Source of the DNA: a virus
Lineage: Duplodnaviria > Caudoviricetes
IMG/VR virus record: IMGVR_UViG_2597490280_000001
Strand: one strand, 5' to 3'
Length of the DNA: 64,000 bases
Of the stretch, positions 2,873-57,379 are shown in pieces. The number at the start of each line of letters is the position of its first letter. Within the stretch, counting starts at the first letter, position 1. Made by a program: the position numbers and the translations under genes. Below the pieces are notes generated by a model that saw only the letters and a program-made list of their open reading frames with translations, did not search any database and had not been told where the DNA came from.

Positions 2873-5833
2873 TTATCCTATTTTTAATTCAATATGTCCT
2901 TGTCCTTCAGTAAGATTAACTTTAACTGTTATTGATCCTGTTGCAATTTCACTTACAAGCTCTACTCCTTTTGAATCTAAGACAGTTATTTTTTTCCCCG
3001 AGAACTCTACAGGGATATCTAATCGATCGTATCCGCTTACGTGATAATCAGCAAATACATATAAAGCATCATTAGCAATAGAATAGTCAAAAGATGTTCT
3101 TACTGGCCCTACATTAGTAAGGTCTACAATATTTCTAAATGCGACTATTGAAAAATATGTGCCTGCATCTTTTACCTGACCCAAATCAATCCCTTTCGGA
3201 TACAACTTTTTAGTTGTATTCAGGAATATTGCATCATTAACTAGTGATTCCCTATTAACAGAGTCTCCAAGATCTCTGATATATCCTAAATGAATACCAT
3301 AATTACCAGGAATAAAATTCATTACTCGAATTGGTGATTTTAAAGGATCTTCCCAAAAACTATCTTTTGTTAAATGTACTGCAGACGTGGGCGCAGCATA
3401 CAAAGGCGCCAATCGGTAATCAACTCCGCCAAAAGTTTTTGATCGTGGGATGTAAATCCTAGCAGATGATGAAGACAGTGCACTCGCCTGAGTAAAGGAA
3501 TGATAATTAAACTTTAATTTTTTGTAAAGATAAAAGTCATGGTAAATAGTGCATTTACCTGCATATCTAAACTCGTAAATAATGGAATGTGAGAAAAGAG
3601 CTTCAGCGTTAAAACTATTCAGATTAGGATTACTTGTATATCCCCCTGATGGGCGATTAGCAGTCAGTTTTATTAATACACTATCAAGATCAAGAATGTC
3701 GTAGTTTTCGGATATTTTAATGACACTTCCTGATGTAGTTCCATCTACGGCCTCAATGCCATCAACATATACCTTACTGTACTTTATTTTTACAAAGTTG
3801 AAAAGATTTCCCAAAGACGTTTGTGTATACCCTGAAATATTTCCTGTATTTACACCGTTGCTCTTATGCGTTAGCGCCCCGTTAACAGCAGGAAAATTAT
3901 AAGAATATCCATCTGTAGCAATATTTCTCGCAACTACAACTAAATTGTTTGCGTCTATTATTCTTGTTATAACAAAATCCCTGGGAGATTCATCCGTATA
4001 AATAGATCCTATGTCAGAAAATGTTTTCCCATGAGATGTTAATGTAAGCTGTTTAGCGTATGACCATCCATGATTTCCTCCAATAAATCTTCCTGAACCG
4101 TCACTTGTATCGAAAATATTAACAGGGGCCACATCATCATTACTGTTTTTGAATAATACTCCAGACACATAATCGCTTTGTAAATTAAAATTTGGATTAC
4201 TGAGATTATCTGCTCCTAATCTTGTAATGAAATTAGTAGTGAAAATAGTGTTGTCGCTGATTCCGTTTACGGAATATGAATTTCCATTTTTAAATAACCA
4301 ATTTCTTGATATACTGGTTTCAGGTAAATATTGGCTTTTAATAGTTGTGTAACCAAAAGGCTCGTACTTTGTCGGCATAACATTACCGTCGACGATCATC
4401 AATGTTGCGTCGTCTCCACTTATAATTGTACCATTATCAAAAACATAAACAGCGGAAACATATTTAACGACATTGCCACCAACAAGCGGCTTTCTAAATA
4501 CTCCAGTAATACCTTTACCATTCGCAATGGGATCATAATTACTGAACTCTGTTCCGTCATCTTTTACAGGATTTACCGGATTAATTCCATCAATTGAAAA
4601 TCTTAAATTACCATTACTTGACGTCCTTCCTGAGATTGCAATATGTGTTTTAGTATCGTCTAACCTTAACCATTTCGTTGTTTTACTATTTAAGCTGTCG
4701 GTTCTCAATGCTCCCGTGGTAGAATTAATGTAACCAACATCGAACACAGATTTATCAAACAGATTATTGCTTTTATTAAGTAATTGAGTATACTTAACAG
4801 ATTCAGGTATTAAATCTTCGCGAACTTCAACCTTAACACCTTGATTGTCTTTCTTAACAAAGGTGCTGCCTAAAATCTGCATGATTACTGTAGATCCTAT
4901 ATTTAAATTGGTGACAAATACCATTGCACTTGCAGGCGGAGTAAAATCTCCCTCTTGATTAAATGACAAAGTATAATTGGAACGTCCAGTTGGTTTTAAT
5001 TGTGACCCGTTAACATCTAAAAAAACAACTGAAAAAGCAGAACCTGAATCGCGGTTAGCTTTAATGTGATATTCAAGCAATTCAACAGGTACCGCAATCA
5101 TTTTAGAAGCAGAATCATTAACAATACCTGTATTATTATCAATTCTTCCAATAATCTGATAAGATTTTTTAAACAAATCAATCTGACCTTTTAATAAATC
5201 TGACTCTTTTAATAAGTTAGAATTTATCACATCTGATATCTTCCTAACATATGTATTAGAAAATACTCCATCTTGATTAACAACCTCCACTCCCCCTTCA
5301 ATTACTTTATTGGTGCCGAGAGCTACAGGCAACAACTGCATCTTTGGAATACTCCAAATTTCCGTAGCACCATTCCAATAAACCATCCCGTCGTTACCCT
5401 CGGGCAATCCATCCGTGCCAGTTGGATTTTTTAAGACAATATTGTTGTACTTCCAGTATCCCCAACTAGCATCGAACCACCTGTTTTGTCCAGAAGGTCC
5501 GGCAGACAATGCAATTGCTGTAGCTGCAGTCGCACCTCCCTGAATAGCTGGAATTGATTCAGTTATCGTTGCCCAGGCTGCATCTTGGATTTCTTGAGTA
5601 ATATCCGTCTGATTTTTTAGACCAGCCAATTTTGTAAGTTGATCTTGAGTCAGCTGATCCAATCGTAACCACTCATCTTCTTTTAAAGATGCAGAATATA
5701 AGCTTCCATCAGCAGCTACTTTCCAATCTTCCCACCGATACGAACTTCCAACACTTTTAATTATTCTAATTTCGTCCCCTTGCTCAAAAATAGCTCCTTC
5801 GGGAAGTGTATCTATGTATTTATACTTTTGCAT
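2873..5833 (-). CDS. tail fibre / receptor-binding protein
   Basis: 986 aa, beta-rich (G/S/T/N) modules, at the distal end of the structural operon. Confidence 0.55.
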   Translation of the reverse strand: MQKYKYIDTLPEGAIFEQGDEIRIIKSVGSSYRWEDWKVAADGSLYSASLKEDEWLRLDQLTQDQLTKLAGLKNQTDITQEIQDAAWATITESIPAIQGGATAATAIALSAGPSGQNRWFDASWGYWKYNNIVLKNPTGTDGLPEGNDGMVYWNGATEIWSIPKMQLLPVALGTNKVIEGGVEVVNQDGVFSNTYVRKISDVINSNLLKESDLLKGQIDLFKKSYQIIGRIDNNTGIVNDSASKMIAVPVELLEYHIKANRDSGSAFSVVFLDVNGSQLKPTGRSNYTLSFNQEGDFTPPASAMVFVTNLNIGSTVIMQILGSTFVKKDNQGVKVEVREDLIPESVKYTQLLNKSNNLFDKSVFDVGYINSTTGALRTDSLNSKTTKWLRLDDTKTHIAISGRTSSNGNLRFSIDGINPVNPVKDDGTEFSNYDPIANGKGITGVFRKPLVGGNVVKYVSAVYVFDNGTIISGDDATLMIVDGNVMPTKYEPFGYTTIKSQYLPETSISRNWLFKNGNSYSVNGISDNTIFTTNFITRLGADNLSNPNFNLQSDYVSGVLFKNSNDDVAPVNIFDTSDGSGRFIGGNHGWSYAKQLTLTSHGKTFSDIGSIYTDESPRDFVITRIIDANNLVVVARNIATDGYSYNFPAVNGALTHKSNGVNTGNISGYTQTSLGNLFNFVKIKYSKVYVDGIEAVDGTTSGSVIKISENYDILDLDSVLIKLTANRPSGGYTSNPNLNSFNAEALFSHSIIYEFRYAGKCTIYHDFYLYKKLKFNYHSFTQASALSSSSARIYIPRSKTFGGVDYRLAPLYAAPTSAVHLTKDSFWEDPLKSPIRVMNFIPGNYGIHLGYIRDLGDSVNRESLVNDAIFLNTTKKLYPKGIDLGQVKDAGTYFSIVAFRNIVDLTNVGPVRTSFDYSIANDALYVFADYHVSGYDRLDIPVEFSGKKITVLDSKGVELVSEIATGSITVKVNLTEGQGHIELKIG

Positions 5834-9504: not shown

Positions 9505-12500
9505 TTAATCACTATTTTCCGAAGCTTCAAATTTCTCTCTTATTATATCAGCTTCGCGCCATATTTCTGATTGAATATCTCTTCGCTTATCTTCAGATTC
9601 CGTTGAGTAATATTTATCAATTAATCCGTAAATAAACTTTACTTCTTTGCTCCTTGTTTTTCCCTTTTTCTTTGCAACTTTCATAAGTAGACTAACAGAT
9701 TTTGAATCCATCACCGGAGAGTCCTTCATAAAACCAGTTTTTGAAACACCAAATTTATGCTTGCTATCATCTCGACCTATATCCGACAGTGACATTGCCC
9801 AATCACCAACATATGTCGTATAACCTTTTACCACATGGTCTACTTTTCGAGCATCCCAATCTGTACCAACCAATCCCATAGTCGCACTAATACCTTTTCC
9901 CAACCGACTTGCTTTACTCTCACCTTTACGTAGACCCTTCTCAAGACCTTCTTCATATACAGGCACAATATTTCGATCGCGAAAAGTATCTTTGTTGGTC
10001 ATTGCTTCAATTATTGGTTTGAAAGATCCAAATATCGCTTCCTGATGTAATGGCACCATAGCATCTACAGCAGTATTTCCAAATCCGGTAAAAGCATCTT
10101 TAGAGTCAGTTCCCGTGGCCACATCCCAACTACGATCTACCACATTGCTCAAAAGCGCTAATTCAAAAGGTTTTGGCATACTTATCCAGCTTTTTACTCC
10201 AGGGACTTTAAAGTTCCAAAACAAATCTCTTTGATAAGCTGGCAATTGTTTATATTCTTCTTCATCACCTCCATACGCAATAGCTACCCGACTCAAAATA
10301 GTCGGCACGACAGTATACATAAATATTTTAGCCGCAAATACAGCCGGTTTTTCTTTAGCTATCTTTGCAGTACGGACTAAACCTTGTACAGCTGCATTGG
10401 TAAATGGTATGATCTTATTCACTTCACGTATGAAATTACCCGCAACTGCAAAATCCATCAAATCACGAGCTTGAAACGCAGCATATAGTCCTGCATCCCG
10501 CTCACTCATCCCTTCAGTTATTGCTTTTTCGTAGGACTTTTTAAACTCTGCCATACGATTAAGATTTTCAGATCCTTCCAATAATTTTTTATATCCAGAC
10601 CAGGCCTTGCGAGGGTCCAATACTATTCCACCTTTTTTCGTTATATCTCGAACTGTATCACTCAGTTTACGACTATAATCTACTTTATCAATAAGGTGAA
10701 ATCCAGCTTGTGACCCACCAAATAAATGAAATGCATCCTCGTATGATTTTGCTCCGAAGAAATCTTTTATTCCACTATTACTACGTGAATGAATTAATCG
10801 TGCTACTGTATCACGTGTAGCATTTCTAGCGGCAAAAATAGGGAAATTTGTTACTGTAGCACGAATTACCTTCGCAGGAATAGAAGCATATTTAAAAAAT
10901 GGGTGCTCAGATATACCTTCTAAGTTTTTTAGCGCATTATATACATCTTGATCAGCTATGCGCCATCTTTGCTTGACACCCTTATTATAAAAAGTGATCA
11001 CTTGATCAACACCACTACTCGCTCCTACTTCATGGGCTATCTGAGCAAAATTAATAGCATCACCATTTCCCATGGCACGTTTAGCGGTCAATGGCTCTAT
11101 AAACGTTCCAATAACTTCATTACGATCAGATTCACGAACCATATTTGCCATATTCATCAAAAGAGATTGATAAGGATTGGATATCATGTCGGTCCCCCCT
11201 TTTGCCTTGTATATAACTTCTTTTACTGAAGCTAAAGCACCACCACTTTTAGAGATAAATCCAAGTTGCTCTTCTAGAGGCGAGGATTCTTTTATACGTT
11301 TCATGGAAACATAAAATTGATTGTTTTCTTTTATTACCTCGTATTCAGACTGCGACAATCGACCTTTATCAACTGCATATTGTAAAGTGGTATCAGCATA
11401 TTCCCGATACTTTTCTGCGGCCTTTCTAATACGTTCATATTTAATTACATCAGATTTTTTCATTTGTTCAAAATCCATCAAATAACCAGTAGCAACATCA
11501 AAATCCGATTTTAATCCTGCACCTATACCCGAAAGATTATCCTTACGACCAAATTTATTAGCGTACTCTAATGTTCGTTCAGAAATTAAGAGATTTACCA
11601 CATCATCCATTTCACCATGAAGTGTTCCTTCAGAACTTGAATCTAAATCTTTTACCAACCATTCCACAGTCATTGCTTCACCATCTGCACTTTTTACCAT
11701 TTTTCCATTAGCATCAAACAGTCCTTTTTCTAAAATGTGGTTAATTTTACCTCCTTCCCCAGCAAAATTACGAGCCATTATATCAAATTGTTTATGGATA
11801 GGCAATGGCTTTCCATCACCTAGTTCATCCACAGAAAACCGAAAAGCTTTATTTGCTATAGTCATACTATTAGTGAAATTCACCTTCAACTTATCCCACG
11901 CTGTCACATTAAACATTCCTTCTTTTTTATCAGGAAAATGTTTTTCTAACCACTTCCGAAATTCTGTTTTATCTGGTAATGAACTACTTTCAATATTGGC
12001 AGCCATAACTTCTCCGTTAGGCGCATTCCACAGATTACGATAGTCTTCAGAGAATTTATCTAATATCTCTCTAACTTTTGCATCGCCATATACTTTATCA
12101 GTGAAGTGTTTATCAAATAATGGGGCCAGTCGAACAGCTTCTTTAGGATTCGCTATTCTGGTTCTAAAATACTCAGCAATACCTTCCCGTTTCAGATACT
12201 CTATCTTTTGAGCATCAGTCATTCTTGCAGATGGATTGGAACCACCACGGTCAGCAAACCAGCCTAATTCTTTATATATAGTTCTTCGATCAGCCCCTGG
12301 TATACTACCAAATACATCATGACGATCATCCAATAGATGGCCCAATTCATGCGCCAAAGTATCAACATCACCAGCACGAGACAACTTTACCAAAGTATCC
12401 GTAGATCGATATGATCCAGCGACTCCGCGACGGCTGCTTTTCGCATGTAGCACAGTTGCTTTCAAGCCTTTTATCACATCAGCAGCTATTTCATTGAGCT

Positions 12501-15500
12501 TTCTTGGCTTTGCCTTTGGATCTCCTATTTCTGGCTTTACACGCTCATGTACAAGTCCACTTTTACGACTAAGTTCGCTATTTGCTTCGGTTATTCCTTC
12601 ACTTTTTGTCTTAGCACTTACTTCATTTGCGACTGTTCCATTTGATTGCTCATATATACCCGTTGGTGCTACTTTCCCTCCAGATTCTGCTGATTTTTCT
12701 CCTCCTTCATCAAAGAGGTTTGCTCCTTCTCCTGGCTTTCCATTGCTTCTTCCGCTTCGGCCTCTGCTATCGCCTCCTGTAATAGTTGAGCCTTGCTCCA
12801 CGATTTGTTTTCCACTTGTTTGTTCATTGATATTTTCTTTAAGTTCTTTAATTCCTACTTCTTTAGCTGCACCTTCCGTTTTTGGAGTAAACATATCTCC
12901 TTCATGGTCAGACACTTTATTCGCATACTTACCCAACGCATGATAGATCACCTTAGGCGACTTACCATCTGCCAATAATTTTGCGAGTATAAGTTCTACT
13001 TCTCCATGTTGATCTTTAGGTGATTTACTCCCATTAAATAAGTCTGCCTGATTAGTCCATCCTTCAAAAGAATCAACTCCCGATTGTTTATATTGTTGAA
13101 CCAATCCAAAAGCTTTTTGCATTTCTGGTAATATCGATTTGGAGGCAGGTAATGATAATAATTTAGGCAATGATCGGACTATACCTTGCTGAGTACGAGA
13201 AGGCAGAGCATCATAAGCATCGGAAACGGACACATCTGCACCTTCAAACATAAAATGTGTAATCAATGATTCCATATCTTTTACCGCCTCTGCCCTAAAT
13301 TCTCCATTAGGCTTAAATAAACTCGCTTTCTGCGTATCACTAAGATACGGTTTCAATACTTCAACCACTTGCTTCCCATTCACACGCAAAGCTTCATTGA
13401 TCGTCATTTCTGTATTTTCACCAAAAACAGATTCAACCAATTTTGCTTTATTTGCCCTTGGCATTCTACGTGACACATTTATAGAATTAATTCTTGCAGA
13501 ACCACCTGATTCAATATCTTTAAATTCATAGTTACCTAATGTAATTGCATCACTATCTGAAGCTTTCACTCGACGAACTAATACAGGTTTATCCAGACCT
13601 TGAACTTGCTCTTTAGTCAACCCAAATTGTTCCGCATTACTTTCTAAAGCAGACTTGTATTTATCTCGACCACTTTCATAATGCTTACGAATTGCATCAC
13701 TACGATTATTTCCTTGTATAACTTCACCGCGTTCATTGATCACAGGAGCACCTGAATAAGCATTCGTATTATCTCCTAATTCACGCACATTAATTTTAGC
13801 TGCCATTTCATCTGAGGATTTCAAAGATGCTGCATCTTTACGATTCTTAGGCTGTGCCTCAGGAACAAAATGATTATGATTACGCACTCCGTTAGAGTGC
13901 GCTGGTTGAAGTTGATTAGCATCGACTAGTACGTAATCAAAATCAACATCTACACCATCAGCAAATTTCACTTTATCTGACTTGCCAGTTGGCATATCTG
14001 CTATTGGCTCTTGGCGTGTATATTCAACCCCATTTACTGTCTTCTTGCCTTCAGATCGAAACTTTTCAGCACCACCAGCCATTAAAGCATCCCATTCATC
14101 AGCTTCATGAGTTTCTGAAATAGCTTTACGTTCTGATTTATTTTCTTTTACCTCTTCAACCTTTCCAATTAAAACATTATCCCGTTCCTTTTGCAAATTA
14201 GACAATTCTTCTTGGTATGTCTTTCGAGTTGTTTCGCTATATAGCTTTTCAGCATTAGGGCTTTCTAATAGGGCGTTTATTCCCTCCACACGTTTATCAA
14301 TTGCATCTATTTTAGAACGCTGATCCTCGGATAATGAACTAACATCATCAATATTTTGATCAATAATTTCAGATATTTCTTTTGTCTTTTCTTCCAAAGT
14401 TCGTTGAATGATATCACTAACTTCCGGGTTTAAATCTGGCTGTTCAAGATCTCGTTTCAAATCGTTCACTTCAGTTTGCAGAACTTCATATTTTTTAGAT
14501 GCATCTTTATTTTTAAAATAGCTCCCAACCTTTGGGGCACTAGCCAAACCAAAGTCCATTGCACTTCCCAAAATAAATGAATCAACGACACCATGCATGG
14601 GATCATCCCCCTTGGTTATGTTATTTGCCAACGTAGTTGTCGCCTCAGTCAAACCACCTCTTAAAGTAGCTGGGGCAATTCCATTTGAATATAACATTCG
14701 GCTTACAAAGCCTCTCGACATCTTCTCTATCTCATCTTTGGACATAGATTTAAAGATATTCTCGCGAATCAATTTTTGTGTACCGCCAACTGCCCCTAAA
14801 GTATAATCAGTAAATCCTGCAATTGCTGACATCCCAATCTTTTGATTATAGCTTAAATCTTCGCGGTCTTTCAATTCCTGATAGTGACTATTCATCAATG
14901 GAACTGAATTAACCGCCGCGCGAGAAAATACCCCTAGATTTCCTACAGAAGATATACCTTCCGTTGCAATCATCTGAATTAGCGAGGGTATAGCATGAAG
15001 AATTCCTACAGCAAACTGTTCGCCAGCCTCACCATAATCACCTGCTTTCAACGACCCCTCTATTCCATCATGTTTAAATTGTAGTTTACTATTATAATAG
15101 TCAGCTCCTTCCTTACCTTTTTTAGCAAATTGATCTATCGCATAAAAAGGATTGATATAATTTAGTTTAGTTTCCTCATCACTCGTAGTCATTTTTATCA
15201 TATCTTGATAAGGATTACCATTAGTTTTTAAAGCATCCGAATACTCATTCCTACCAGCATTATTTTCTACCGCACCGGCTATCAGATTACTAAAAGTTGA
15301 GGGTAGGTTATAAATGAATTCAGGTATACTAGCAATTGAGTTTTGCAATGAAGGCACAATAGACATTGCTGCATTACCCAGACGGTCACCAAAAAACGGC
15401 TCATTAATTGTTCCTAGTCCTTTTTCACTAACTTCAACCAATACTTTACCATTCTCATCTAATAGCCTTGCATCAGGATGATTAACCGAGAAATTAGATT

Positions 15501-16773
15501 TTAATCTTTCAATACTATCAAAATTCAAAGATTTGATTTCTTCTGCATTTAATTTATGAAACTTACCCCCTTCTCCTGTCCCCCAATTTTCTTTAAAATC
15601 CTCAAATGTTTTATATCCTCCTGCACTAGAATTTGACATAATAGGGTTACCAACTTCTGCTTCATTTAAAATACCATTTAATGAATCCAATATTTCCTTA
15701 TATTTTGGATTTTTATCAATGTTTTCATTAAGGAATTTAAGAGTATTAATAGCCTCTGGCGAATCTAAAAGATCTCTATATTTTTCTTTAAGATTTTGCA
15801 TAGCAGTGCCCTTACCTTCTTCAACAAGAGAAATATGTGCTACATCCCAATCTTCTAAATGATGCATACCAACATCTTTAGAAGCACTCCACAATACATC
15901 CTTGTAAAGTTGCTTATTTTTATCTGCATCAATTGGTTTACCGTCAACAGATAAAACATAGTCCCTTGCTGAATTAAAATTATGTAATGACACTGGAGAT
16001 TGAGAATTGCCTTTGGCCAATATATCAGCTTGACTATTAATCGAACGACCTCCTTGATCATTATACAATTTATTTGACTTTTGAAAATCGACCTTTACTT
16101 GTGATCCAGGATATTTTGATTGCAAAATCTCAGTCGCCTTTGTTTCAAATTCACCAAATTTAACTTCGTGAGCTGCTCGGTTAACCACATCATTATTAGG
16201 TTCTTTTGCTATGACTGTTTTGATCACACTTTTATCTGAAGAACTACCTTTGGTATATTTATTGAAATCAACAAGTTTATCTTTCAGTAAGTTTTTGATC
16301 AACGGTGTATGATCTATATTATCTTTATTGACTGTATTAACCGAATTATCAACAAACTTTAATCCTGGTTCTCCCAATTTTACATCTGGAAAAACAGCAG
16401 AAGCAGGTACTATTTCTTTTATTGGTGCTACATCTGGAACTTTATCATCTTTTACTTCTGGAAATACTCCTCCACTTGGCATACTTGGTTCATTTTTACT
16501 TGTCCTCATTGACACTTTTGTATCATAACTAGTTGTACCAAAATACTTCCCATTAAAATCTTCTAATGATTTAGAATAAAATTTTTTGCCATTAAGAAGG
16601 TTATACAACTTCCCTATCTTTTCTGGATTGGAGAATTGTTTTTCAAAATCATCGTAGCTTTTAGTGTATACTCCTCGACCATTCAGGTCTGACCACAATT
16701 TCTTTTTTGGATCTTCTTGCTGCTGAGGCATAGCTTCAACCCCAGTATTTCCTTCGTATATATTATCTTCCAT
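9505..16773 (-). CDS. large polyvalent / ejected virion protein (M15-like peptidase, DdrB-like ParB, HExxH zincin-like, LPD38-like C-terminus)
   Basis: SLHNFNSARD..WDVAH; YSGAPVIN..IQGNNR; AHELGH; YKQLPAYQRDLFW..PKPFE motifs. Confidence 0.7.
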   Translation of the reverse strand: MEDNIYEGNTGVEAMPQQQEDPKKKLWSDLNGRGVYTKSYDDFEKQFSNPEKIGKLYNLLNGKKFYSKSLEDFNGKYFGTTSYDTKVSMRTSKNEPSMPSGGVFPEVKDDKVPDVAPIKEIVPASAVFPDVKLGEPGLKFVDNSVNTVNKDNIDHTPLIKNLLKDKLVDFNKYTKGSSSDKSVIKTVIAKEPNNDVVNRAAHEVKFGEFETKATEILQSKYPGSQVKVDFQKSNKLYNDQGGRSINSQADILAKGNSQSPVSLHNFNSARDYVLSVDGKPIDADKNKQLYKDVLWSASKDVGMHHLEDWDVAHISLVEEGKGTAMQNLKEKYRDLLDSPEAINTLKFLNENIDKNPKYKEILDSLNGILNEAEVGNPIMSNSSAGGYKTFEDFKENWGTGEGGKFHKLNAEEIKSLNFDSIERLKSNFSVNHPDARLLDENGKVLVEVSEKGLGTINEPFFGDRLGNAAMSIVPSLQNSIASIPEFIYNLPSTFSNLIAGAVENNAGRNEYSDALKTNGNPYQDMIKMTTSDEETKLNYINPFYAIDQFAKKGKEGADYYNSKLQFKHDGIEGSLKAGDYGEAGEQFAVGILHAIPSLIQMIATEGISSVGNLGVFSRAAVNSVPLMNSHYQELKDREDLSYNQKIGMSAIAGFTDYTLGAVGGTQKLIRENIFKSMSKDEIEKMSRGFVSRMLYSNGIAPATLRGGLTEATTTLANNITKGDDPMHGVVDSFILGSAMDFGLASAPKVGSYFKNKDASKKYEVLQTEVNDLKRDLEQPDLNPEVSDIIQRTLEEKTKEISEIIDQNIDDVSSLSEDQRSKIDAIDKRVEGINALLESPNAEKLYSETTRKTYQEELSNLQKERDNVLIGKVEEVKENKSERKAISETHEADEWDALMAGGAEKFRSEGKKTVNGVEYTRQEPIADMPTGKSDKVKFADGVDVDFDYVLVDANQLQPAHSNGVRNHNHFVPEAQPKNRKDAASLKSSDEMAAKINVRELGDNTNAYSGAPVINERGEVIQGNNRSDAIRKHYESGRDKYKSALESNAEQFGLTKEQVQGLDKPVLVRRVKASDSDAITLGNYEFKDIESGGSARINSINVSRRMPRANKAKLVESVFGENTEMTINEALRVNGKQVVEVLKPYLSDTQKASLFKPNGEFRAEAVKDMESLITHFMFEGADVSVSDAYDALPSRTQQGIVRSLPKLLSLPASKSILPEMQKAFGLVQQYKQSGVDSFEGWTNQADLFNGSKSPKDQHGEVELILAKLLADGKSPKVIYHALGKYANKVSDHEGDMFTPKTEGAAKEVGIKELKENINEQTSGKQIVEQGSTITGGDSRGRSGRSNGKPGEGANLFDEGGEKSAESGGKVAPTGIYEQSNGTVANEVSAKTKSEGITEANSELSRKSGLVHERVKPEIGDPKAKPRKLNEIAADVIKGLKATVLHAKSSRRGVAGSYRSTDTLVKLSRAGDVDTLAHELGHLLDDRHDVFGSIPGADRRTIYKELGWFADRGGSNPSARMTDAQKIEYLKREGIAEYFRTRIANPKEAVRLAPLFDKHFTDKVYGDAKVREILDKFSEDYRNLWNAPNGEVMAANIESSSLPDKTEFRKWLEKHFPDKKEGMFNVTAWDKLKVNFTNSMTIANKAFRFSVDELGDGKPLPIHKQFDIMARNFAGEGGKINHILEKGLFDANGKMVKSADGEAMTVEWLVKDLDSSSEGTLHGEMDDVVNLLISERTLEYANKFGRKDNLSGIGAGLKSDFDVATGYLMDFEQMKKSDVIKYERIRKAAEKYREYADTTLQYAVDKGRLSQSEYEVIKENNQFYVSMKRIKESSPLEEQLGFISKSGGALASVKEVIYKAKGGTDMISNPYQSLLMNMANMVRESDRNEVIGTFIEPLTAKRAMGNGDAINFAQIAHEVGASSGVDQVITFYNKGVKQRWRIADQDVYNALKNLEGISEHPFFKYASIPAKVIRATVTNFPIFAARNATRDTVARLIHSRSNSGIKDFFGAKSYEDAFHLFGGSQAGFHLIDKVDYSRKLSDTVRDITKKGGIVLDPRKAWSGYKKLLEGSENLNRMAEFKKSYEKAITEGMSERDAGLYAAFQARDLMDFAVAGNFIREVNKIIPFTNAAVQGLVRTAKIAKEKPAVFAAKIFMYTVVPTILSRVAIAYGGDEEEYKQLPAYQRDLFWNFKVPGVKSWISMPKPFELALLSNVVDRSWDVATGTDSKDAFTGFGNTAVDAMVPLHQEAIFGSFKPIIEAMTNKDTFRDRNIVPVYEEGLEKGLRKGESKASRLGKGISATMGLVGTDWDARKVDHVVKGYTTYVGDWAMSLSDIGRDDSKHKFGVSKTGFMKDSPVMDSKSVSLLMKVAKKKGKTRSKEVKFIYGLIDKYYSTESEDKRRDIQSEIWREADIIREKFEASENSD

Positions 16774-51465: not shown

Positions 51466-51777
51466 ATGAGCAGATCATATAACATTCCACAAAAATATAT
51501 CGACCTAGTTGGTACAAAAAGAAAATTCTCTGGAGGCTTATTTTCAGCAAAAAAGGAATTACCGGAAACTGAATACATGATACATAATATCCGCTGGGGA
51601 TCAGCAACAATAATAAACTACAGAGAACTTAGTGAAACTGGTAAATCAAGTTATGAATATCCTACTGTTGAATATCTACTTAGTAATAGGTCTTCGAAAC
51701 GTAAACAATGGTCAAGAGGTTTTGCGGTTAGAGAAATTGACATAAATAAATTAGAAAGCGAGGTATCAGGTGAATAG
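51466..51777 (+). CDS. hypothetical protein
   Basis: 103-aa ORF. Confidence 0.55.
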   Translation: MSRSYNIPQKYIDLVGTKRKFSGGLFSAKKELPETEYMIHNIRWGSATIINYRELSETGKSSYEYPTVEYLLSNRSSKRKQWSRGFAVREIDINKLESEVSGE

Positions 51778-52689: not shown

Positions 52690-52952
52690 TGAGTAAAGCA
52701 ACCAAACATCAGCAAACGATTATTCACTTCGTTAGATCCCACGATAATAAAATCACGAAAAAACAAGCCTGTGAACTTATCCCCTTTTATCATAATACAG
52801 CGAAACAAGTAGGTGACATTTTATCCAGAATGGTAAAATCTAAAATGCTCAAACGTATAAAGCCTGGGCATTTTGAATTAGGTACAGGACAAAAGCAAGA
52901 TATAAATCAAATAGTCATTTTCAATCAAACAGAATTATCATTTAAATCATAA
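52689..52952 (+). CDS. winged-helix protein
   Basis: ITKKQACEL..VGDILSRMVKSKMLKRIKPGHFEL. Confidence 0.6.
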   Translation: MSKATKHQQTIIHFVRSHDNKITKKQACELIPFYHNTAKQVGDILSRMVKSKMLKRIKPGHFELGTGQKQDINQIVIFNQTELSFKS

Positions 52953-52957
52953 AAAAC

Positions 52958-53311
52958 ATGGATTACAAACAAATTGACACATTCGAGAAAGTACTCGAGA
53001 GCAAAGGTGAAACTATGGAACAGTTTCAAGAACGGACAAAATCATTAGATATCGACACTGTTGGTTACGAGAAAGTAAAAGCAATAGCTTTTGCTTTAAA
53101 TGGTGGGAAACATGTAAAAGAAGGATATTATCCATGGTTCTACAACCCTAATCGTTCGGCTGTTGGGTTTTCGTGCTTCGACTACGACTACGACCTCGGC
53201 CGCGCGAGTGTCGGTGCTCGCCACCTTTTAATTGATAGCGAAAGAGCTCGTTATGCAGGGAAAACATTCCCATTGGAGTATAGTCAATATATTAACGGAA
53301 TTACTGAATAA
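52958..53311 (+). CDS. DGR target protein 1
   Basis: contains VR1; YYPWF..VGFS-(variable)-VGAR..RARYAGKTF. Confidence 0.85.
   Translation: MDYKQIDTFEKVLESKGETMEQFQERTKSLDIDTVGYEKVKAIAFALNGGKHVKEGYYPWFYNPNRSAVGFSCFDYDYDLGRASVGARHLLIDSERARYAGKTFPLEYSQYINGITE
53154..53223 (+). repeat. DGR variable repeat VR1
   Basis: 70-nt ungapped match to TR; 15 mismatches, all opposite TR adenines. Confidence 0.95.
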
Positions 53312-53318
53312 TTAAACT

Positions 53319-53795
53319 ATGGAAAATCTAACAATTAGTAAAGAAAATGCGATAAAAGCATTTGAAGAAGCAAATGAAAAAGGAAAGACACTCCTTAAAA
53401 ATCTTTTTGGAACCAAAGTTTTTGTTAAAAACATCATTGATCAAATTGATAGTTTAGATGCTGCACTTGAATACAACGGTAAAACTAAAGAACGTTTCAA
53501 CTGGGAAACTGAACGGGATACCGATGCACAAAAAGCAGAAAAAGAAATTGAAGAAATTGCTCTTGCTCTTAGAGAGGGTAAGGAGCTAGAGATGGGGCAA
53601 CGATGGTATTATCCATATTTTTTAAAACCTACTGGTCCGGCTGTTGGGTTTTCGTCCTACGGCTACCTCTGCGACGACGGCATCGCGCGTGTCGGTGCTC
53701 GCCGATCTGTGGATACTTCAGAAAAAGCAATTTACATGGGTAAAAAGTTTATTGACATATACAACAGACTTTTAGGTCCTAATAATAACAAATAA
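53319..53795 (+). CDS. DGR target protein 2 (paralogue of target 1)
   Basis: contains VR2; YYPYF..VGFS-(variable)-VGAR..KAIYMGKKF. Confidence 0.85.
   Translation: MENLTISKENAIKAFEEANEKGKTLLKNLFGTKVFVKNIIDQIDSLDAALEYNGKTKERFNWETERDTDAQKAEKEIEEIALALREGKELEMGQRWYYPYFLKPTGPAVGFSSYGYLCDDGIARVGARRSVDTSEKAIYMGKKFIDIYNRLLGPNNNK
53631..53704 (+). repeat. DGR variable repeat VR2
   Basis: 74-nt ungapped match to TR; 17 of 18 mismatches opposite TR adenines. Confidence 0.95.
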
Positions 53796-53817
53796 GTAAA
53801 ATCAGGTTGTGTGCCGT

Positions 53818-53891
53818 ACTGGTTCAGCTGTTGAGTTTTCGTACAACGACTACAACTACGACAACGACAACGCGAATGTCAGTGCTCACAA
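53818..53891 (+). repeat. DGR template repeat (TR)
   Basis: intergenic, rich in AAC/TAC/GAC codons, directly upstream of the RT. Confidence 0.95.
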
Positions 53892-54007
53892 TGCTTTAAA
53901 ATTTACAACGGCACAAACCTTACCGAATGGTAAAAAATTAACTAATCTTAAGGGGCGTTGGTAATCTAACTCAGATGAAGACGACCCGACAAGCATAGGC
54001 GAATTTC

Positions 54008-54961
54008 ATGAAAAGAATAAGTAATCTATACGATCAAATCTGTAGCATTGACAATATATTGCTTGCAGATAAGATAGCACGCAAAGGAAAATCTCGACAA
54101 TCTGGAGTAATAAATTTTGATAAAAATTATGATCAAAATATAGCAGATATCTATCGCGAACTAATCACAAAAACCTACAAAACATCAACTTACAGGTACG
54201 AAACAATTTACGAACCAAAAGAAAGACAAATTGCAATTCTGCCCTATCGTGATCGCATTGTTCATCATGCTATCATGAATATTTTGGAGCCTGTTTTTGT
54301 GAGCCTGTTTACTGCCGATACATATAGTTGCATAAAAGGACGGGGTGTACACAAAGCAAGCTATGCTTTACGTGATGCATTAAAGAAGGTCAATGAGACA
54401 ACATATTGCTTACAACTTGATATACGTAAGTTTTATCCATCTGTTGATAATGATATCTTAAAAACCTTATTAAGGAAAAAAATAAAAGATAAAGAAATGC
54501 TTTCCTTACTTGATGGCATTATCGACAGTTCTGAAGGATTGCCGATCGGGAATTATCTCAGCCAATACCTGTCCAACTTTTATTTGACATACATGGATCA
54601 CCATATCAAAGAAGTCTTGGGTATCCGCCACTACTTCAGATATGCAGATGATATGATAATCCTACATGCAGATAAATCATATTTGCACTACATACATCAA
54701 GAAATATCAAGTTATCTGTCCTCACGTCTTAAACTTAGGTTAAAACCTAACCGAGGACCATTTCCAGTGTCATTGGGAATTGACTTTGGAGGGTACAAAC
54801 ATTATCATACTCATACAATGTTAAGAAAGGGTATTAAAAAGAATTTTGCTCGAGCGGTCAAAGCAAATAAACCAAAATCTAGTATAAACAGCTACTTAGG
54901 CTGGGCATCACATTGCGACTCCAAAAACTTTATAAAGAAAATATTAAATGAGAAACTTTAG
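54008..54961 (+). CDS. DGR reverse transcriptase
   Basis: EPKER, YRDRIVHHA, LDIRKFYPS, GLPIGNYLSQ (DGR-type SQ motif), RYADD, GIDFGGY; 317 aa. Confidence 0.95.
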   Translation: MKRISNLYDQICSIDNILLADKIARKGKSRQSGVINFDKNYDQNIADIYRELITKTYKTSTYRYETIYEPKERQIAILPYRDRIVHHAIMNILEPVFVSLFTADTYSCIKGRGVHKASYALRDALKKVNETTYCLQLDIRKFYPSVDNDILKTLLRKKIKDKEMLSLLDGIIDSSEGLPIGNYLSQYLSNFYLTYMDHHIKEVLGIRHYFRYADDMIILHADKSYLHYIHQEISSYLSSRLKLRLKPNRGPFPVSLGIDFGGYKHYHTHTMLRKGIKKNFARAVKANKPKSSINSYLGWASHCDSKNFIKKILNEKL

Positions 54962-55250
54962 CGATTTCAACATTCAAATAAACAGATTCGAAGGAAAAAA
55001 AATAGAAATGGACGATGTTATTGACCAGGATATTCAAATACTTGATTATAAGATAGAACCCTCAAAATATCCAGAAAAAGGTAATGGTCTGAGATTAACA
55101 CTTCAAATAAAATTTGAAGGGAAAAATCGTATAATATTTACCAGTTCAGTAATACTACAAGAACAATGCATAAAAGTAAGAGCAGTCGATGGATTTCCAT
55201 TTACTGCTAAAATCATCTCTTTGAAACCCAAAGGGTTTAAATTCATATAA
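54948..55250 (+). CDS. small protein overlapping the RT 3' end (candidate DGR accessory factor)
   Basis: 100 aa, beta-rich, 14-nt overlap with the RT. Confidence 0.6.
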   Translation: MRNFSDFNIQINRFEGKKIEMDDVIDQDIQILDYKIEPSKYPEKGNGLRLTLQIKFEGKNRIIFTSSVILQEQCIKVRAVDGFPFTAKIISLKPKGFKFI

Positions 55251-55268: not shown

Positions 55269-55493
55269 ATGGACATGAATGAATACCTAAACAAACATAT
55301 AGGATCGGAGATCCAAAAAGCTCGTAAAGAAGCAGGAATGACACAAGAAGAATTGGCAATTAAAGTTGGTTTTTCTACTCGAAACGCCCTCGCTAATGTA
55401 GAGTCTGGAGCAAAAGCAGTTTCTATATCAAAAATTGCTCAAATTTGTGAAATTCTCAATCTAGAAACTGTGTTTTTTTTACGCAAAAAATAG
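55269..55493 (+). CDS. XRE-family HTH regulator
   Basis: IQKARKEAGMTQEELA..LANVESG. Confidence 0.9.
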   Translation: MDMNEYLNKHIGSEIQKARKEAGMTQEELAIKVGFSTRNALANVESGAKAVSISKIAQICEILNLETVFFLRKK

Positions 55494-55903: not shown

Positions 55904-57379
55904 TTAAAAGGGAGCATCATCGACATCAAAATTTTCACTTTCGGAGAAATCCCTTTGAAGGCTATCATTATTAGTAAAATTACTAAAACTATTAGTATCA
56001 ACAAAGTTTTGTTGAGAAGTTATTGAATCTTGCCAATCTTTAAACTTCGTATATTTCCCAATGAACTCAATAGCAATATCATCTGTTTCCCCATGCCTAT
56101 TTTTTGCCAGTATTAATTCTGCCAAACCTGCAGTACTTTCTCCATTCACATTTTCATTTATTCCATAATATTCTGGTCGATAAAGAAACATTACCGCATC
56201 TGCATCTTGCTCAATTGATCCTGATTCACGTAAATCGGAAAGCATAGGTCTTTTGTTCGGCCTAGATTCCACTGCCCTACTAAGTTGTGACAAAGCCAGT
56301 ACTGGAACATCCAATTCCTTTGCTACTGATTTCAGCATCCTTGAAATGCTACCTATCTCCTGTTCACGATTCCCTTTACCATCCTTTTCACCGGTCATCA
56401 ATTGCAGATAATCAACTATAATCATCTCAATATTATATTTAGCCTTTAAACGGCGACATTTAGCTCTAAATTCAAGTATTTTAATAGCAGGCGTATCATC
56501 CCAAAAAATTGGAGCATTTTCAATTATTTGCCCAACAATTTCCAACTGTTTAATATCATTTTCATTCAAGCATGATGGTTTATTTAATTTAAAAAGTGGA
56601 ATTTCTCCAACAATTGACATTTGCTTTCTCATTAATTGTTCTGCAGTCATTTCAAGTGAAAAAACTGCAACCGCTTTATTGAAATCAATTGCCGCGTTAA
56701 AAGCAAACGAAAGGGCTAGAGAAGTTTTTCCCATTGCTGGTCGAGCTGCTAAAATAGCAAGGTGTCCTGGCTGCCAACCTCCTGTTAAGCGATCTAACTC
56801 AGTGAATCCAGAAGGAACTCCAGTAAAATCAACATCCCTACTAGCTATAATACTTTTAAAAGTTTGTTGATATAATTGAGCATTACTTAATTCCTTCTTT
56901 GTAATAATAATACTCTGTAAATCATCTCTTTTTACAGAATTTTCTGAAAGGATATCAAACACATCCTTCTGCCCCATATAACAATCTTCAATTGTATTAG
57001 AGCTCGATTTTATAAGATCACGTAAAATATGTTTTTCAACTATAATCCTGCAATGATGCTCAATATTAGCTGATGAAATAACTCGATCAATTAATTGAGT
57101 AATAAAATATGCACCTCCTAATTTTTCTAAAACTCGCTTTTTTCGTAACTGATTAGTTAACGTCATCATATCCAAAGGGATCAATGATTTATACATTTCA
57201 ATCATTGTTTTATACAAAAGCACATGCTTCTCACTATAAAACATCTCAGGAAGTGGAAGGATCTCTAAAACTGTATCAATAACACCTTTTTCAGATAAGA
57301 TAGTTCCCAATACTACTTCTTCTAAATCTGTCGCGTTAGGCGGTAACTTTGACATCTGTAAACCCTTAATATCCCCCAT
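55904..57379 (-). CDS. dnaB: replicative DNA helicase
   Basis: AARPAMGKT, FSLEM, VDYLQL, LSQLSR, DLRESGSIEQDAD, KNRHG. Confidence 0.95.
   Translation of the reverse strand: MGDIKGLQMSKLPPNATDLEEVVLGTILSEKGVIDTVLEILPLPEMFYSEKHVLLYKTMIEMYKSLIPLDMMTLTNQLRKKRVLEKLGGAYFITQLIDRVISSANIEHHCRIIVEKHILRDLIKSSSNTIEDCYMGQKDVFDILSENSVKRDDLQSIIITKKELSNAQLYQQTFKSIIASRDVDFTGVPSGFTELDRLTGGWQPGHLAILAARPAMGKTSLALSFAFNAAIDFNKAVAVFSLEMTAEQLMRKQMSIVGEIPLFKLNKPSCLNENDIKQLEIVGQIIENAPIFWDDTPAIKILEFRAKCRRLKAKYNIEMIIVDYLQLMTGEKDGKGNREQEIGSISRMLKSVAKELDVPVLALSQLSRAVESRPNKRPMLSDLRESGSIEQDADAVMFLYRPEYYGINENVNGESTAGLAELILAKNRHGETDDIAIEFIGKYTKFKDWQDSITSQQNFVDTNSFSNFTNNDSLQRDFSESENFDVDDAPF

Follow-up and report, generated by a model that had tools for sequence, protein, structure and literature searches.

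A prophage-borne diversity-generating retroelement without Avd that targets a pair of small adjacent proteins

What is understood of diversity-generating retroelements (DGRs) of phages comes almost entirely from the diversification of tail fibres, and their mechanism is known from the Avd-dependent Bordetella system. In the DGR of Bordetella phage BPP-1 (mtd-avd-TR-brt), a template repeat (TR) is transferred to a variable repeat (VR) with changes at adenines, and the element named cPRT Stop, made up of an upstream:spacer duplex, then a stem-loop and then adenosines, flanks the TR. Both features are shared by the locus described here, which occupies positions 52958-55250 of a 64,000-nucleotide (nt) stretch of tailed-phage DNA (IMG/VR record IMGVR_UViG_2597490280_000001, Caudoviricetes; hereafter the window). 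This locus is a genuine DGR in a prophage, and it rewrites two small neighbouring proteins. It differs from the BPP-1 element in having no Avd and in serving two small non-tail targets, whereas BPP-1 has one tail-fibre target. It also differs in its reverse transcriptase (RT), which is accompanied by a domain with a predicted oligonucleotide/oligosaccharide-binding (OB)-like fold, whereas the Bordetella enzyme bRT is described without extra subdomains in the preprint by Handa et al.

DGRs without Avd are known from the survey of Wu et al. 2018, in which 74% of the elements have avd, 26% lack it, and 29% have no accessory gene at all (Architecture A; PMC5758913). Architecture A is shared by the present locus with respect to the gene order target-TR-RT, the presence of several targets and the absence of avd, HRDC, MSL and CH1. 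The difference is a 100-amino-acid (aa) gene at the end of the cassette, which fits none of the four accessory classes described in that paper; CH1, for example, is acidic and 160-169 aa long, whereas the product of this gene is basic. The supplementary tables of Wu et al. could list the lineage. Two target genes served by one TR are also found in phage DGRs with tentaclins (PMC10743442). The two targets there differ from each other in topology and both carry C-type lectin domains, while the targets here are paralogues of 117-158 aa without a detectable lectin domain. The nearest RTs in the phage collection belong to DGRs of crAss-like phages (for example cr56_1, NC_055890.1), with 65-70% nucleotide identity over part of the gene. 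In those phages the target lies in the tail module and is a tail protein resembling Mtd or a sulfatase; the gene after the RT encodes a holin, and no OB gene is annotated.

A first-pass annotation, made from the letters of the window, had presented the locus as an atypical DGR. Its sequence facts were right, and its range holds the full cassette, but the conserved open reading frame (ORF) at 54948-55250 was overlooked. The unusualness of the missing Avd and of the double target was overstated, as DGRs of both kinds had already been described and the layout proved to be the norm in a large phage family (see below).

The adenine-specific differences between TR and VRs, together with an RT of the DGR type, bear out the assignment of the locus as a DGR. 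Coordinates are given as positions in the window; other positions of the host genome carry the prefix G000:C1, and labels of the form L0xx or L1xx denote examined loci. In ungapped alignments, all 15 mismatches between VR1 and the TR were located at TR adenines (hypergeometric p 2.4e-10), as were 17 of the 18 mismatches between VR2 and the TR (p 7e-11), the sole exception being a T>C difference at 53824. These counts agree with the first-pass annotation, except that VR1 pairs with the TR from position 53822 and not from 53818. In the frame of the targets the TR reads TAC AAC GAC TAC AAC TAC GAC AAC GAC AAC GCG AAT. According to our own arithmetic, 11 of these codons contain 16 adenines between them, which is enough for about 3e9 peptides per VR, and no stop codon can arise. 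The VRs are located near the 3' ends of the target genes, with 28 and 29 codons left before the stop, and the TR begins 22 nt after the stop of target 2. The codon types and adenine content of the TR, the approximately 30 codons after the VR and the 22-nt gap had all been reported before and were reproduced.

All six VRs found in the host genome read GGT...CGC where the TRs read AGT...CAC. The corresponding VG(A/S)R residues show a conservation of at least 90%, which fits a fixed boundary of the type known as IMH/IMH* (initiation of mutagenic homing), and selection at the protein level could account for the conservation equally well. Near the 5' end of the TR, adenines 53826 and 53834 are represented by G in both VRs and also in the TR of a second cassette of the same genome; these positions may reflect a recent change of the TR or sites that tolerate only G.

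The RT gene product matched RVT_1 of Pfam (2.8e-19) and phrog_1423 (8.7e-120). Among solved structures the best match was 8ub7_A, a reverse transcriptase of 328 aa (E 3.1e-45), with group II intron RTs (5e-19) and retron RTs far behind. The 328-aa RT chain of entries 8ub7-8ube, for which the match table names no organism, is presumably the Bordetella bRT. The motif [LIV]GxxxSQ is a signature of DGR RTs. It is present here as IGNYLSQ, together with YADD, in agreement with the GNYLSQ and YADD motifs that had been pointed out before, and both are invariant across 17 RTs. The latter come from a survey of 401 sampled family genomes, 14 of which yielded 17 cassettes.

Table 1. Features of the cassette, in window coordinates
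Feature	Position	Strand	Remarks
Target 1, 117 aa, short paralogue	52958..53311	+	phrog_11581, 1.4e-6
VR1	53154..53223	+	ungapped match to TR 53822-53891, 70 nt
Target 2, 158 aa, long paralogue	53319..53795	+	phrog_11581, 1.4e-8
VR2	53631..53704	+	ungapped match to TR 53818-53891, 74 nt
Clamp helix, 5' strand (cPRT-Stop-like duplex, predicted)	53805..53817	+	pairs with 53908-53919
Template repeat (TR)	53818..53891	+	23 adenines
Clamp helix, 3' strand (predicted)	53908..53919	+	pairs with 53805-53817
Spacer RNA resembling Rfam RT-17	53916..53997	+	RF03020, 35.7 bits
Short stem-loop TTACC/GGTAA followed by A-run	53920..53937	+	predicted hairpin
DGR reverse transcriptase, 317 aa	54008..54961	+	RVT_1, phrog_1423, PDB match
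Basic protein, 100 aa, OB-like predicted fold	54948..55250	+	overlaps RT stop by 14 nt

The gene downstream of the RT had no match in the local libraries of Pfam, PHROG or NCBIfam. Its AlphaFold2 (AF2) model had a pLDDT of 92 and the order b1-b2-b3-helix-b4-b5, which fits an OB fold. A wide structural search with this model was dominated by chains of SSB, PriB, RPA and Teb1, with a domain of RuvBL2 also among the matches, at Z 4-6.5. In the ESM Atlas the domain was assigned to the Pfam 38.1 family PF28814, for which no match was found in the literature, and a cluster of 462-aa RTs aligned through the same domain. The homologues are basic, with a mean pI of 8.7.

Homologues of this gene were found at 17 places in 14 of the 401 family genomes, and at all 17 an RT homologue was located directly upstream, overlapping in most cases and 360 nt apart in one. 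Among 39 longer proteins that matched the profile of the 100-aa protein, 36 contained RVT_1, and blastp placed the OB part of at least 33 longer homologues at about residues 315-410, directly after an RT of 45-59% identity. The 100-aa protein is thus probably the C-terminal domain of the RT, split off into an ORF of its own that is likely to be translationally coupled. Its probable counterpart is the uncharacterised extension, measuring up to 150 aa, that Wu et al. 2018 recorded at the C-terminus of about 20% of DGR RTs (PMC5758913). A literature search for an OB-fold accessory protein of DGRs found none, and the supplementary catalogues of Wu et al. and Roux et al. may still list the RT extension or the target cluster.

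A 14-nt overlap in frame +1 was the commonest arrangement at the junction of the two genes (24 of 60 distinct junctions). At the end of the RT gene the sequence reads CTT TAG C, which is the form of the +1 frameshift site of prfB, and a +1 slip would fuse the RT to the OB-like ORF. A programmed frameshift was nevertheless rejected: the overlapping gene has conserved N-F-S codons that account for the motif, and in the fused relatives an internal Met is retained at the junction.

No gene of the four-helix-bundle Avd family was found in or near the cassette when all its ORFs were compared with Pfam. The sole match to PF05635 (Avd / 23S_rRNA_IVP) in the genome lies 1.8 Mb away at G000:C1:4645969-4646236 (about 1501-1768 of L006), is interrupted by internal stops and is not covered by any ORF of at least 60 aa. 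It is located between a thiolase gene and a gene for a 470-aa protein, two genes of fatty-acid oxidation, and is apparently a remnant. The earlier statement that avd is missing is supported. In place of Avd, the OB-like gene is plausibly the best candidate for a partner that handles nucleic acid.

For the RNA, the 17 cassettes were aligned over the 250 nt that precede the RT gene, and the alignment was folded. A predicted helix clamps the TR, with compensatory changes at 9 of its 11 pairs, and a predicted hairpin follows it directly in all 17 cassettes; the sequences of the hairpin stem differ, and AAAA always comes next. A second helix in the spacer (53952-53959 with 53980-53987) was 95% paired and had compensatory changes at 5 of 7 pairs. 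Taking both helices together, 96.4% of the cells were standard pairs and 14 of the 18 pairs had compensatory changes. None of 500 shuffles reached the observed covariation, and partners slid out of register were only 37-46% paired. The predicted TR-clamping helix, stem-loop and A-run are the same layout as the published cPRT Stop, which was described for the Bordetella DGR RNA as an upstream:spacer duplex, a stem-loop and unpaired adenosines, with similar elements predicted in 207 other DGRs (Handa et al. preprint). A difference from BPP-1 concerns the distance between the TR end and the clamp duplex, which is 16 nt here (53892-53907). This would leave no room for a stem-loop of the size of the Avd-binding one (Sp 5-32 in the preprint) and would fit the absence of Avd.

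The spacer also aligned to the whole 95-position model of the Rfam motif RT-17 (RF03020), with which it shares the stem-loop, the A-run and the GGUA...GAA helix. The E-value was 1.6e-5, while the score remained below the gathering score of 40.4, which none of ten related loci reached. Weinberg et al. 2017 proposed that RT motifs besides RT-10 may serve DGRs (PMC5737381), and a DGR is the probable biological home of the orphan RT-17 motif.

The cassette is one of three in the same host, a bacterial genome of 5.33 Mb in a single contig, and the three are carried by three unrelated prophages. Sphingobacterium, Pedobacter and Paraflavitalea are the names attached to the nearest homologues at the protein level. 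The other two cassettes (G000:C1:3942458-3944743 on the minus strand and 3664645-3666928 on the plus strand) each have their own TR and two VRs at equal spacing, and their TR/VR differences are adenine-specific too, with the VRs differently mutated. A genome-wide scan that tolerated adenine changes found only these six VRs and three TRs, and no remote VR, for which the first-pass annotation had suggested such a scan. Nucleotide similarity of the three loci was limited to 52923-55214 of the window. Protein sharing was determined for ORFs of at least 60 aa in the window plus 40 kb at each end and within 60 kb on either side of the other two cassettes. Both targets were in common, as were the RT and the 100-aa protein; beyond these, one tail-like protein of about 1000 aa, transposases of insertion sequences (IS) and some host-type genes outside the prophages were shared. 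The 2.3 kb cassette thus behaves as a mobile module. The TR cores of the three cassettes are near-identical, and the TR pattern of the window shows one non-adenine mismatch against the VRs of the other two. The cDNA of one prophage might home into the targets of another.

Adenine-specific variation among relatives, which the first-pass annotation had named as a check of activity, was seen in three loci. Across 1,900 nt, the only differences among the IMG/VR cassettes L063, L067 and L071 were 20, 23 and 26 mismatches; 20, 20 and 23 of these were inside the two VRs, and 19, 19 and 23 were at TR-adenine positions. In 12 protein pairs of at least 90% identity, 94 of 136 differences fell within a window of 12 residues, and the clusters at this identity include the two other copies of the host genome. 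These aligned sequences mark the family as active in mutagenic homing. The copy in the window is probably active as well, judging from its intact ORFs, invariant catalytic motifs, A-rich TR, intact RNA helices and relatives. It has no near-identical relative, so that its adenine pattern could in principle record past homing only. Such an inactive relic is very improbable: none of the four ORFs is disrupted in any of the three copies of the genome, the motifs of the RT and the RNA helices are preserved, the TR keeps its 23 adenines, and the VR varies among sequences closely related to the other two copies and to IMG/VR members.

The layout of two or three small paralogous targets, TR, RT and 100-aa gene was found at all 17 places in the family genomes, with two VRs in 14 cassettes, three in 2 and one in 1. 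The survey of IMG/VR confirmed at least 307 relatives, of which the best 79 loci were kept for analysis. Most of these showed the same layout, with an RT just downstream in 62 of 79 and a separate OB gene in 53 of these 62. The 62 loci with RT had two target ORFs in 49 cases, three in 8, one in 4 and four in 1. In 17 of the 79 loci the RT was not detected, 3 of them being at contig ends. No RT homologue was found within the flanks of L061, L068, L073, L076, L083, L085, L088, L089, L093, L098, L104, L106, L109, L114 and L119. The targets of RT-less loci are either orphans or served by a divergent or distant RT. What is distinctive is the family as a whole, in which pairs of small non-tail targets are encoded in the early regions of temperate phages and come together with a predicted cPRT-Stop-like RNA and with an RT that is independent of Avd and has a detachable extra domain.

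The two targets are tandem paralogues of the sizes given before, with 37-44% identity to each other, and phrog_11581, a family of unknown function, was the sole family match for both. Pfam gave no family at E up to 1 in either target and none in 36 sampled family members, and nothing was obtained from NCBIfam or from tblastn against phage genomes. For target 2, 41 homologues were named Sphingobacterium or Pedobacter. A target profile built from 27 family members matched 4,828 representative clusters at E <=0.001, most of them of 120-170 aa, and had no match below E 0.026 among PDB sequences. The AF2 model of target 2 was helical with a pLDDT of 79, falling below 50 at the VR residues 109-125. 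A Foldseek search of the PDB gave a best E of 3.8, and the best Z of the wide structural search was 3.8, with no lectin among the best 50. An hhalign comparison with an Mtd-like target of a crAss phage was not significant, with a probability of 0.3% and only the motif VGSRL/TGTRL at the end of the VR aligned. A hydrophobic N-terminal stretch was present in none of 183 target ORFs from 96 loci, in line with the lack of signal peptides noticed before. A single ORF of 279-286 aa (286 aa in L040) joins two target domains in each of L039, L040 and L041, with a separate VR for either domain, and two-domain targets accounted for 22 of the top 150 representative matches. These fusions lend indirect support to the earlier idea that the two targets form a heterodimer.

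One TR is copied into two VRs of two tandem paralogous genes, with changes at the template adenines, and from these observations the following course of events is proposed. The TR-spacer RNA would be bound by the RT and the detached OB-like domain, the latter taking the role of holding nucleic acid that Avd has elsewhere. The cDNA would be cis-primed from the spacer, adenines would be miscopied, and in both targets the product would take the place of everything from the conserved GFS codons to the conserved VG(A/S)R codons, with the G-for-A differences that are fixed at the 3' end (GGT, CGC) as an IMH-like boundary. The two targets would be soluble proteins without export signal that work jointly as a single hetero-oligomeric binder. 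They would be expressed together with early genes of the temperate phage, and the variable ligand that they bind would be located within the infected cell or the lysogen. The combination of a complete cassette, an OB-like domain in the role of Avd and a soluble intracellular hetero-oligomeric binder is considered reasonably probable. The intracellular location and an anti-defence role of the targets are inferred from gene position and the lack of export signals.

Several observations weigh against this proposal. The OB assignment depends on the model and on Z values of 4-6.5, a range common for unrelated small folds, and Foldseek found nothing below E 0.18 with the same model. In 9 of the 62 IMG/VR cassettes with RT the OB homologue was not detected with the queries used. 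No template:primer duplex was consistently recognised, the single-sequence folds from the TR end to the clamp being weak and inconsistent. No relative of the window's target 2 exceeds 80% identity. The targets may be a divergent variant of the C-type lectin fold; Roux et al. (preprint) regard unannotated VR domains as probably new C-type lectin variants. Finally, the lack of a signal peptide is compatible with a virion protein, since phage adhesins also lack signal peptides, and the position in the early region is compatible with a virion protein too.

The last two points lead to the alternative that the targets are parts of the virion, such as small adhesins, or adaptors at the tip of the fibre, that would attach to a tail fibre although their genes lie apart from those of the tail; the DGR would then change the host range as in BPP-1. 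Receptor-binding proteins are the main targets described for phage DGRs (PMC10743442; Roux et al. preprint), and the tail-like protein of about 1000 aa is the only phage protein besides those of the cassette that the three prophages have in common. In the window this is a 986-aa protein (2873-5833, minus strand) without Pfam or PHROG family, 32-39% identical to 1028-aa proteins that both Mu-like prophages encode at their tail end, and it shows a weak resemblance to a gene that is annotated as major tail protein in a Staphylococcus phage. Shared receptor-binding genes are, on the other hand, to be expected anyway in phages of one host. The genomic surroundings of the cassettes, moreover, argue against a virion role, which is regarded as rather unlikely. 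No tail gene was among the recurrent neighbours in 96 loci, where genes of lysogeny, transposition and replication were found instead, and the carrier phages have unrelated structural modules, being Mu-like phages or a large DnaB-encoding phage.

A second protein of about 1000 aa was found within a few kb of the cassette in nine loci (L032:2665-5664, L036, L041, L047, L052, L053, L055, L097 and L118), in several of them directly after it. It belongs to phrog_28855, a family of unknown function, and is unrelated to the tail-like protein of the three prophages. A link between the cassette and the latter protein was therefore rejected.

The location among early genes, as proposed in the first-pass annotation, was supported by the neighbours. 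In the window the cassette lies among early or replication genes, with a YopX gene at 51770, a helix-turn-helix (HTH) gene at 55269 and DnaB at 55904, and the phage further encodes a large terminase, AntA and an ORF of 2,422 aa. This ORF (9505-16773, minus strand) is part of the structural region, and its only matches were PHROGs of unknown function. The remaining two elements, both Mu-like prophages, encode a transposition protein, an ATPase and a MuF-like head protein. Over the loci examined, the recurrent neighbours were integrase, CI-like repressor, Mu-type transposase with transposition protein, Ant and replication initiator; they were co-directional with the cassette or in the lysogeny module, while head genes were further off and on the other strand. 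An IS of 1.35 kb, whose product is 391 aa long, occurs about 30 times in the genome at 99-100% identity. One copy (G000:C1:2712741-2714090) precedes the window by 39.5 kb, and another (2829561-2830910) follows it at 13 kb.

The position in the lysogeny and early region, beside genes for repressor, Ant and integrase, also suits prophage-encoded sensors that would act in the lysogen, giving it diversified recognition for superinfection exclusion or phage defence, and not in the lytic cycle of the phage itself. Intracellular sensors diversified by DGRs have reportedly been proposed in bacteria (PMC10053308; 10.1101/2023.09.22.558884), and the three prophages of one cell each keep a differently diversified pair of targets. 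No effector or signalling domain, however, was fused to the targets or conserved beside them. The genes are, in addition, co-directional with early lytic genes and give no sign of a moron-type unit of their own (promoters not analysed), and this explanation is judged improbable. The intracellular hetero-oligomer is accordingly placed first, the virion adhesin second and the sensor of the lysogen third.

With four genes in 2.3 kb, the system offers a route into Avd-independent homing, into the C-terminal extension of DGR RTs and into the benefit that a phage may draw from hypervariable proteins outside the tail. The occurrence of three cassettes with near-identical TR cores in one cultivable genome makes experiments on cross-homing and activity feasible. 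As a tentative possibility, the family would combine an Avd-independent RT, whose detachable OB-like domain would hold the template RNA or the cDNA, with a two-subunit cytoplasmic binder. The fold of this binder would not be recognisable as a C-type lectin, and its two independently diversified loops would allow about 1e19 combinations. The lineage would then, equally tentatively, not tune host adsorption, and the binder would be made early in infection or in the lysogen. If true, such a binder would be an antibody-like tool of temperate phages for host takeover, anti-defence or conflict between phages.

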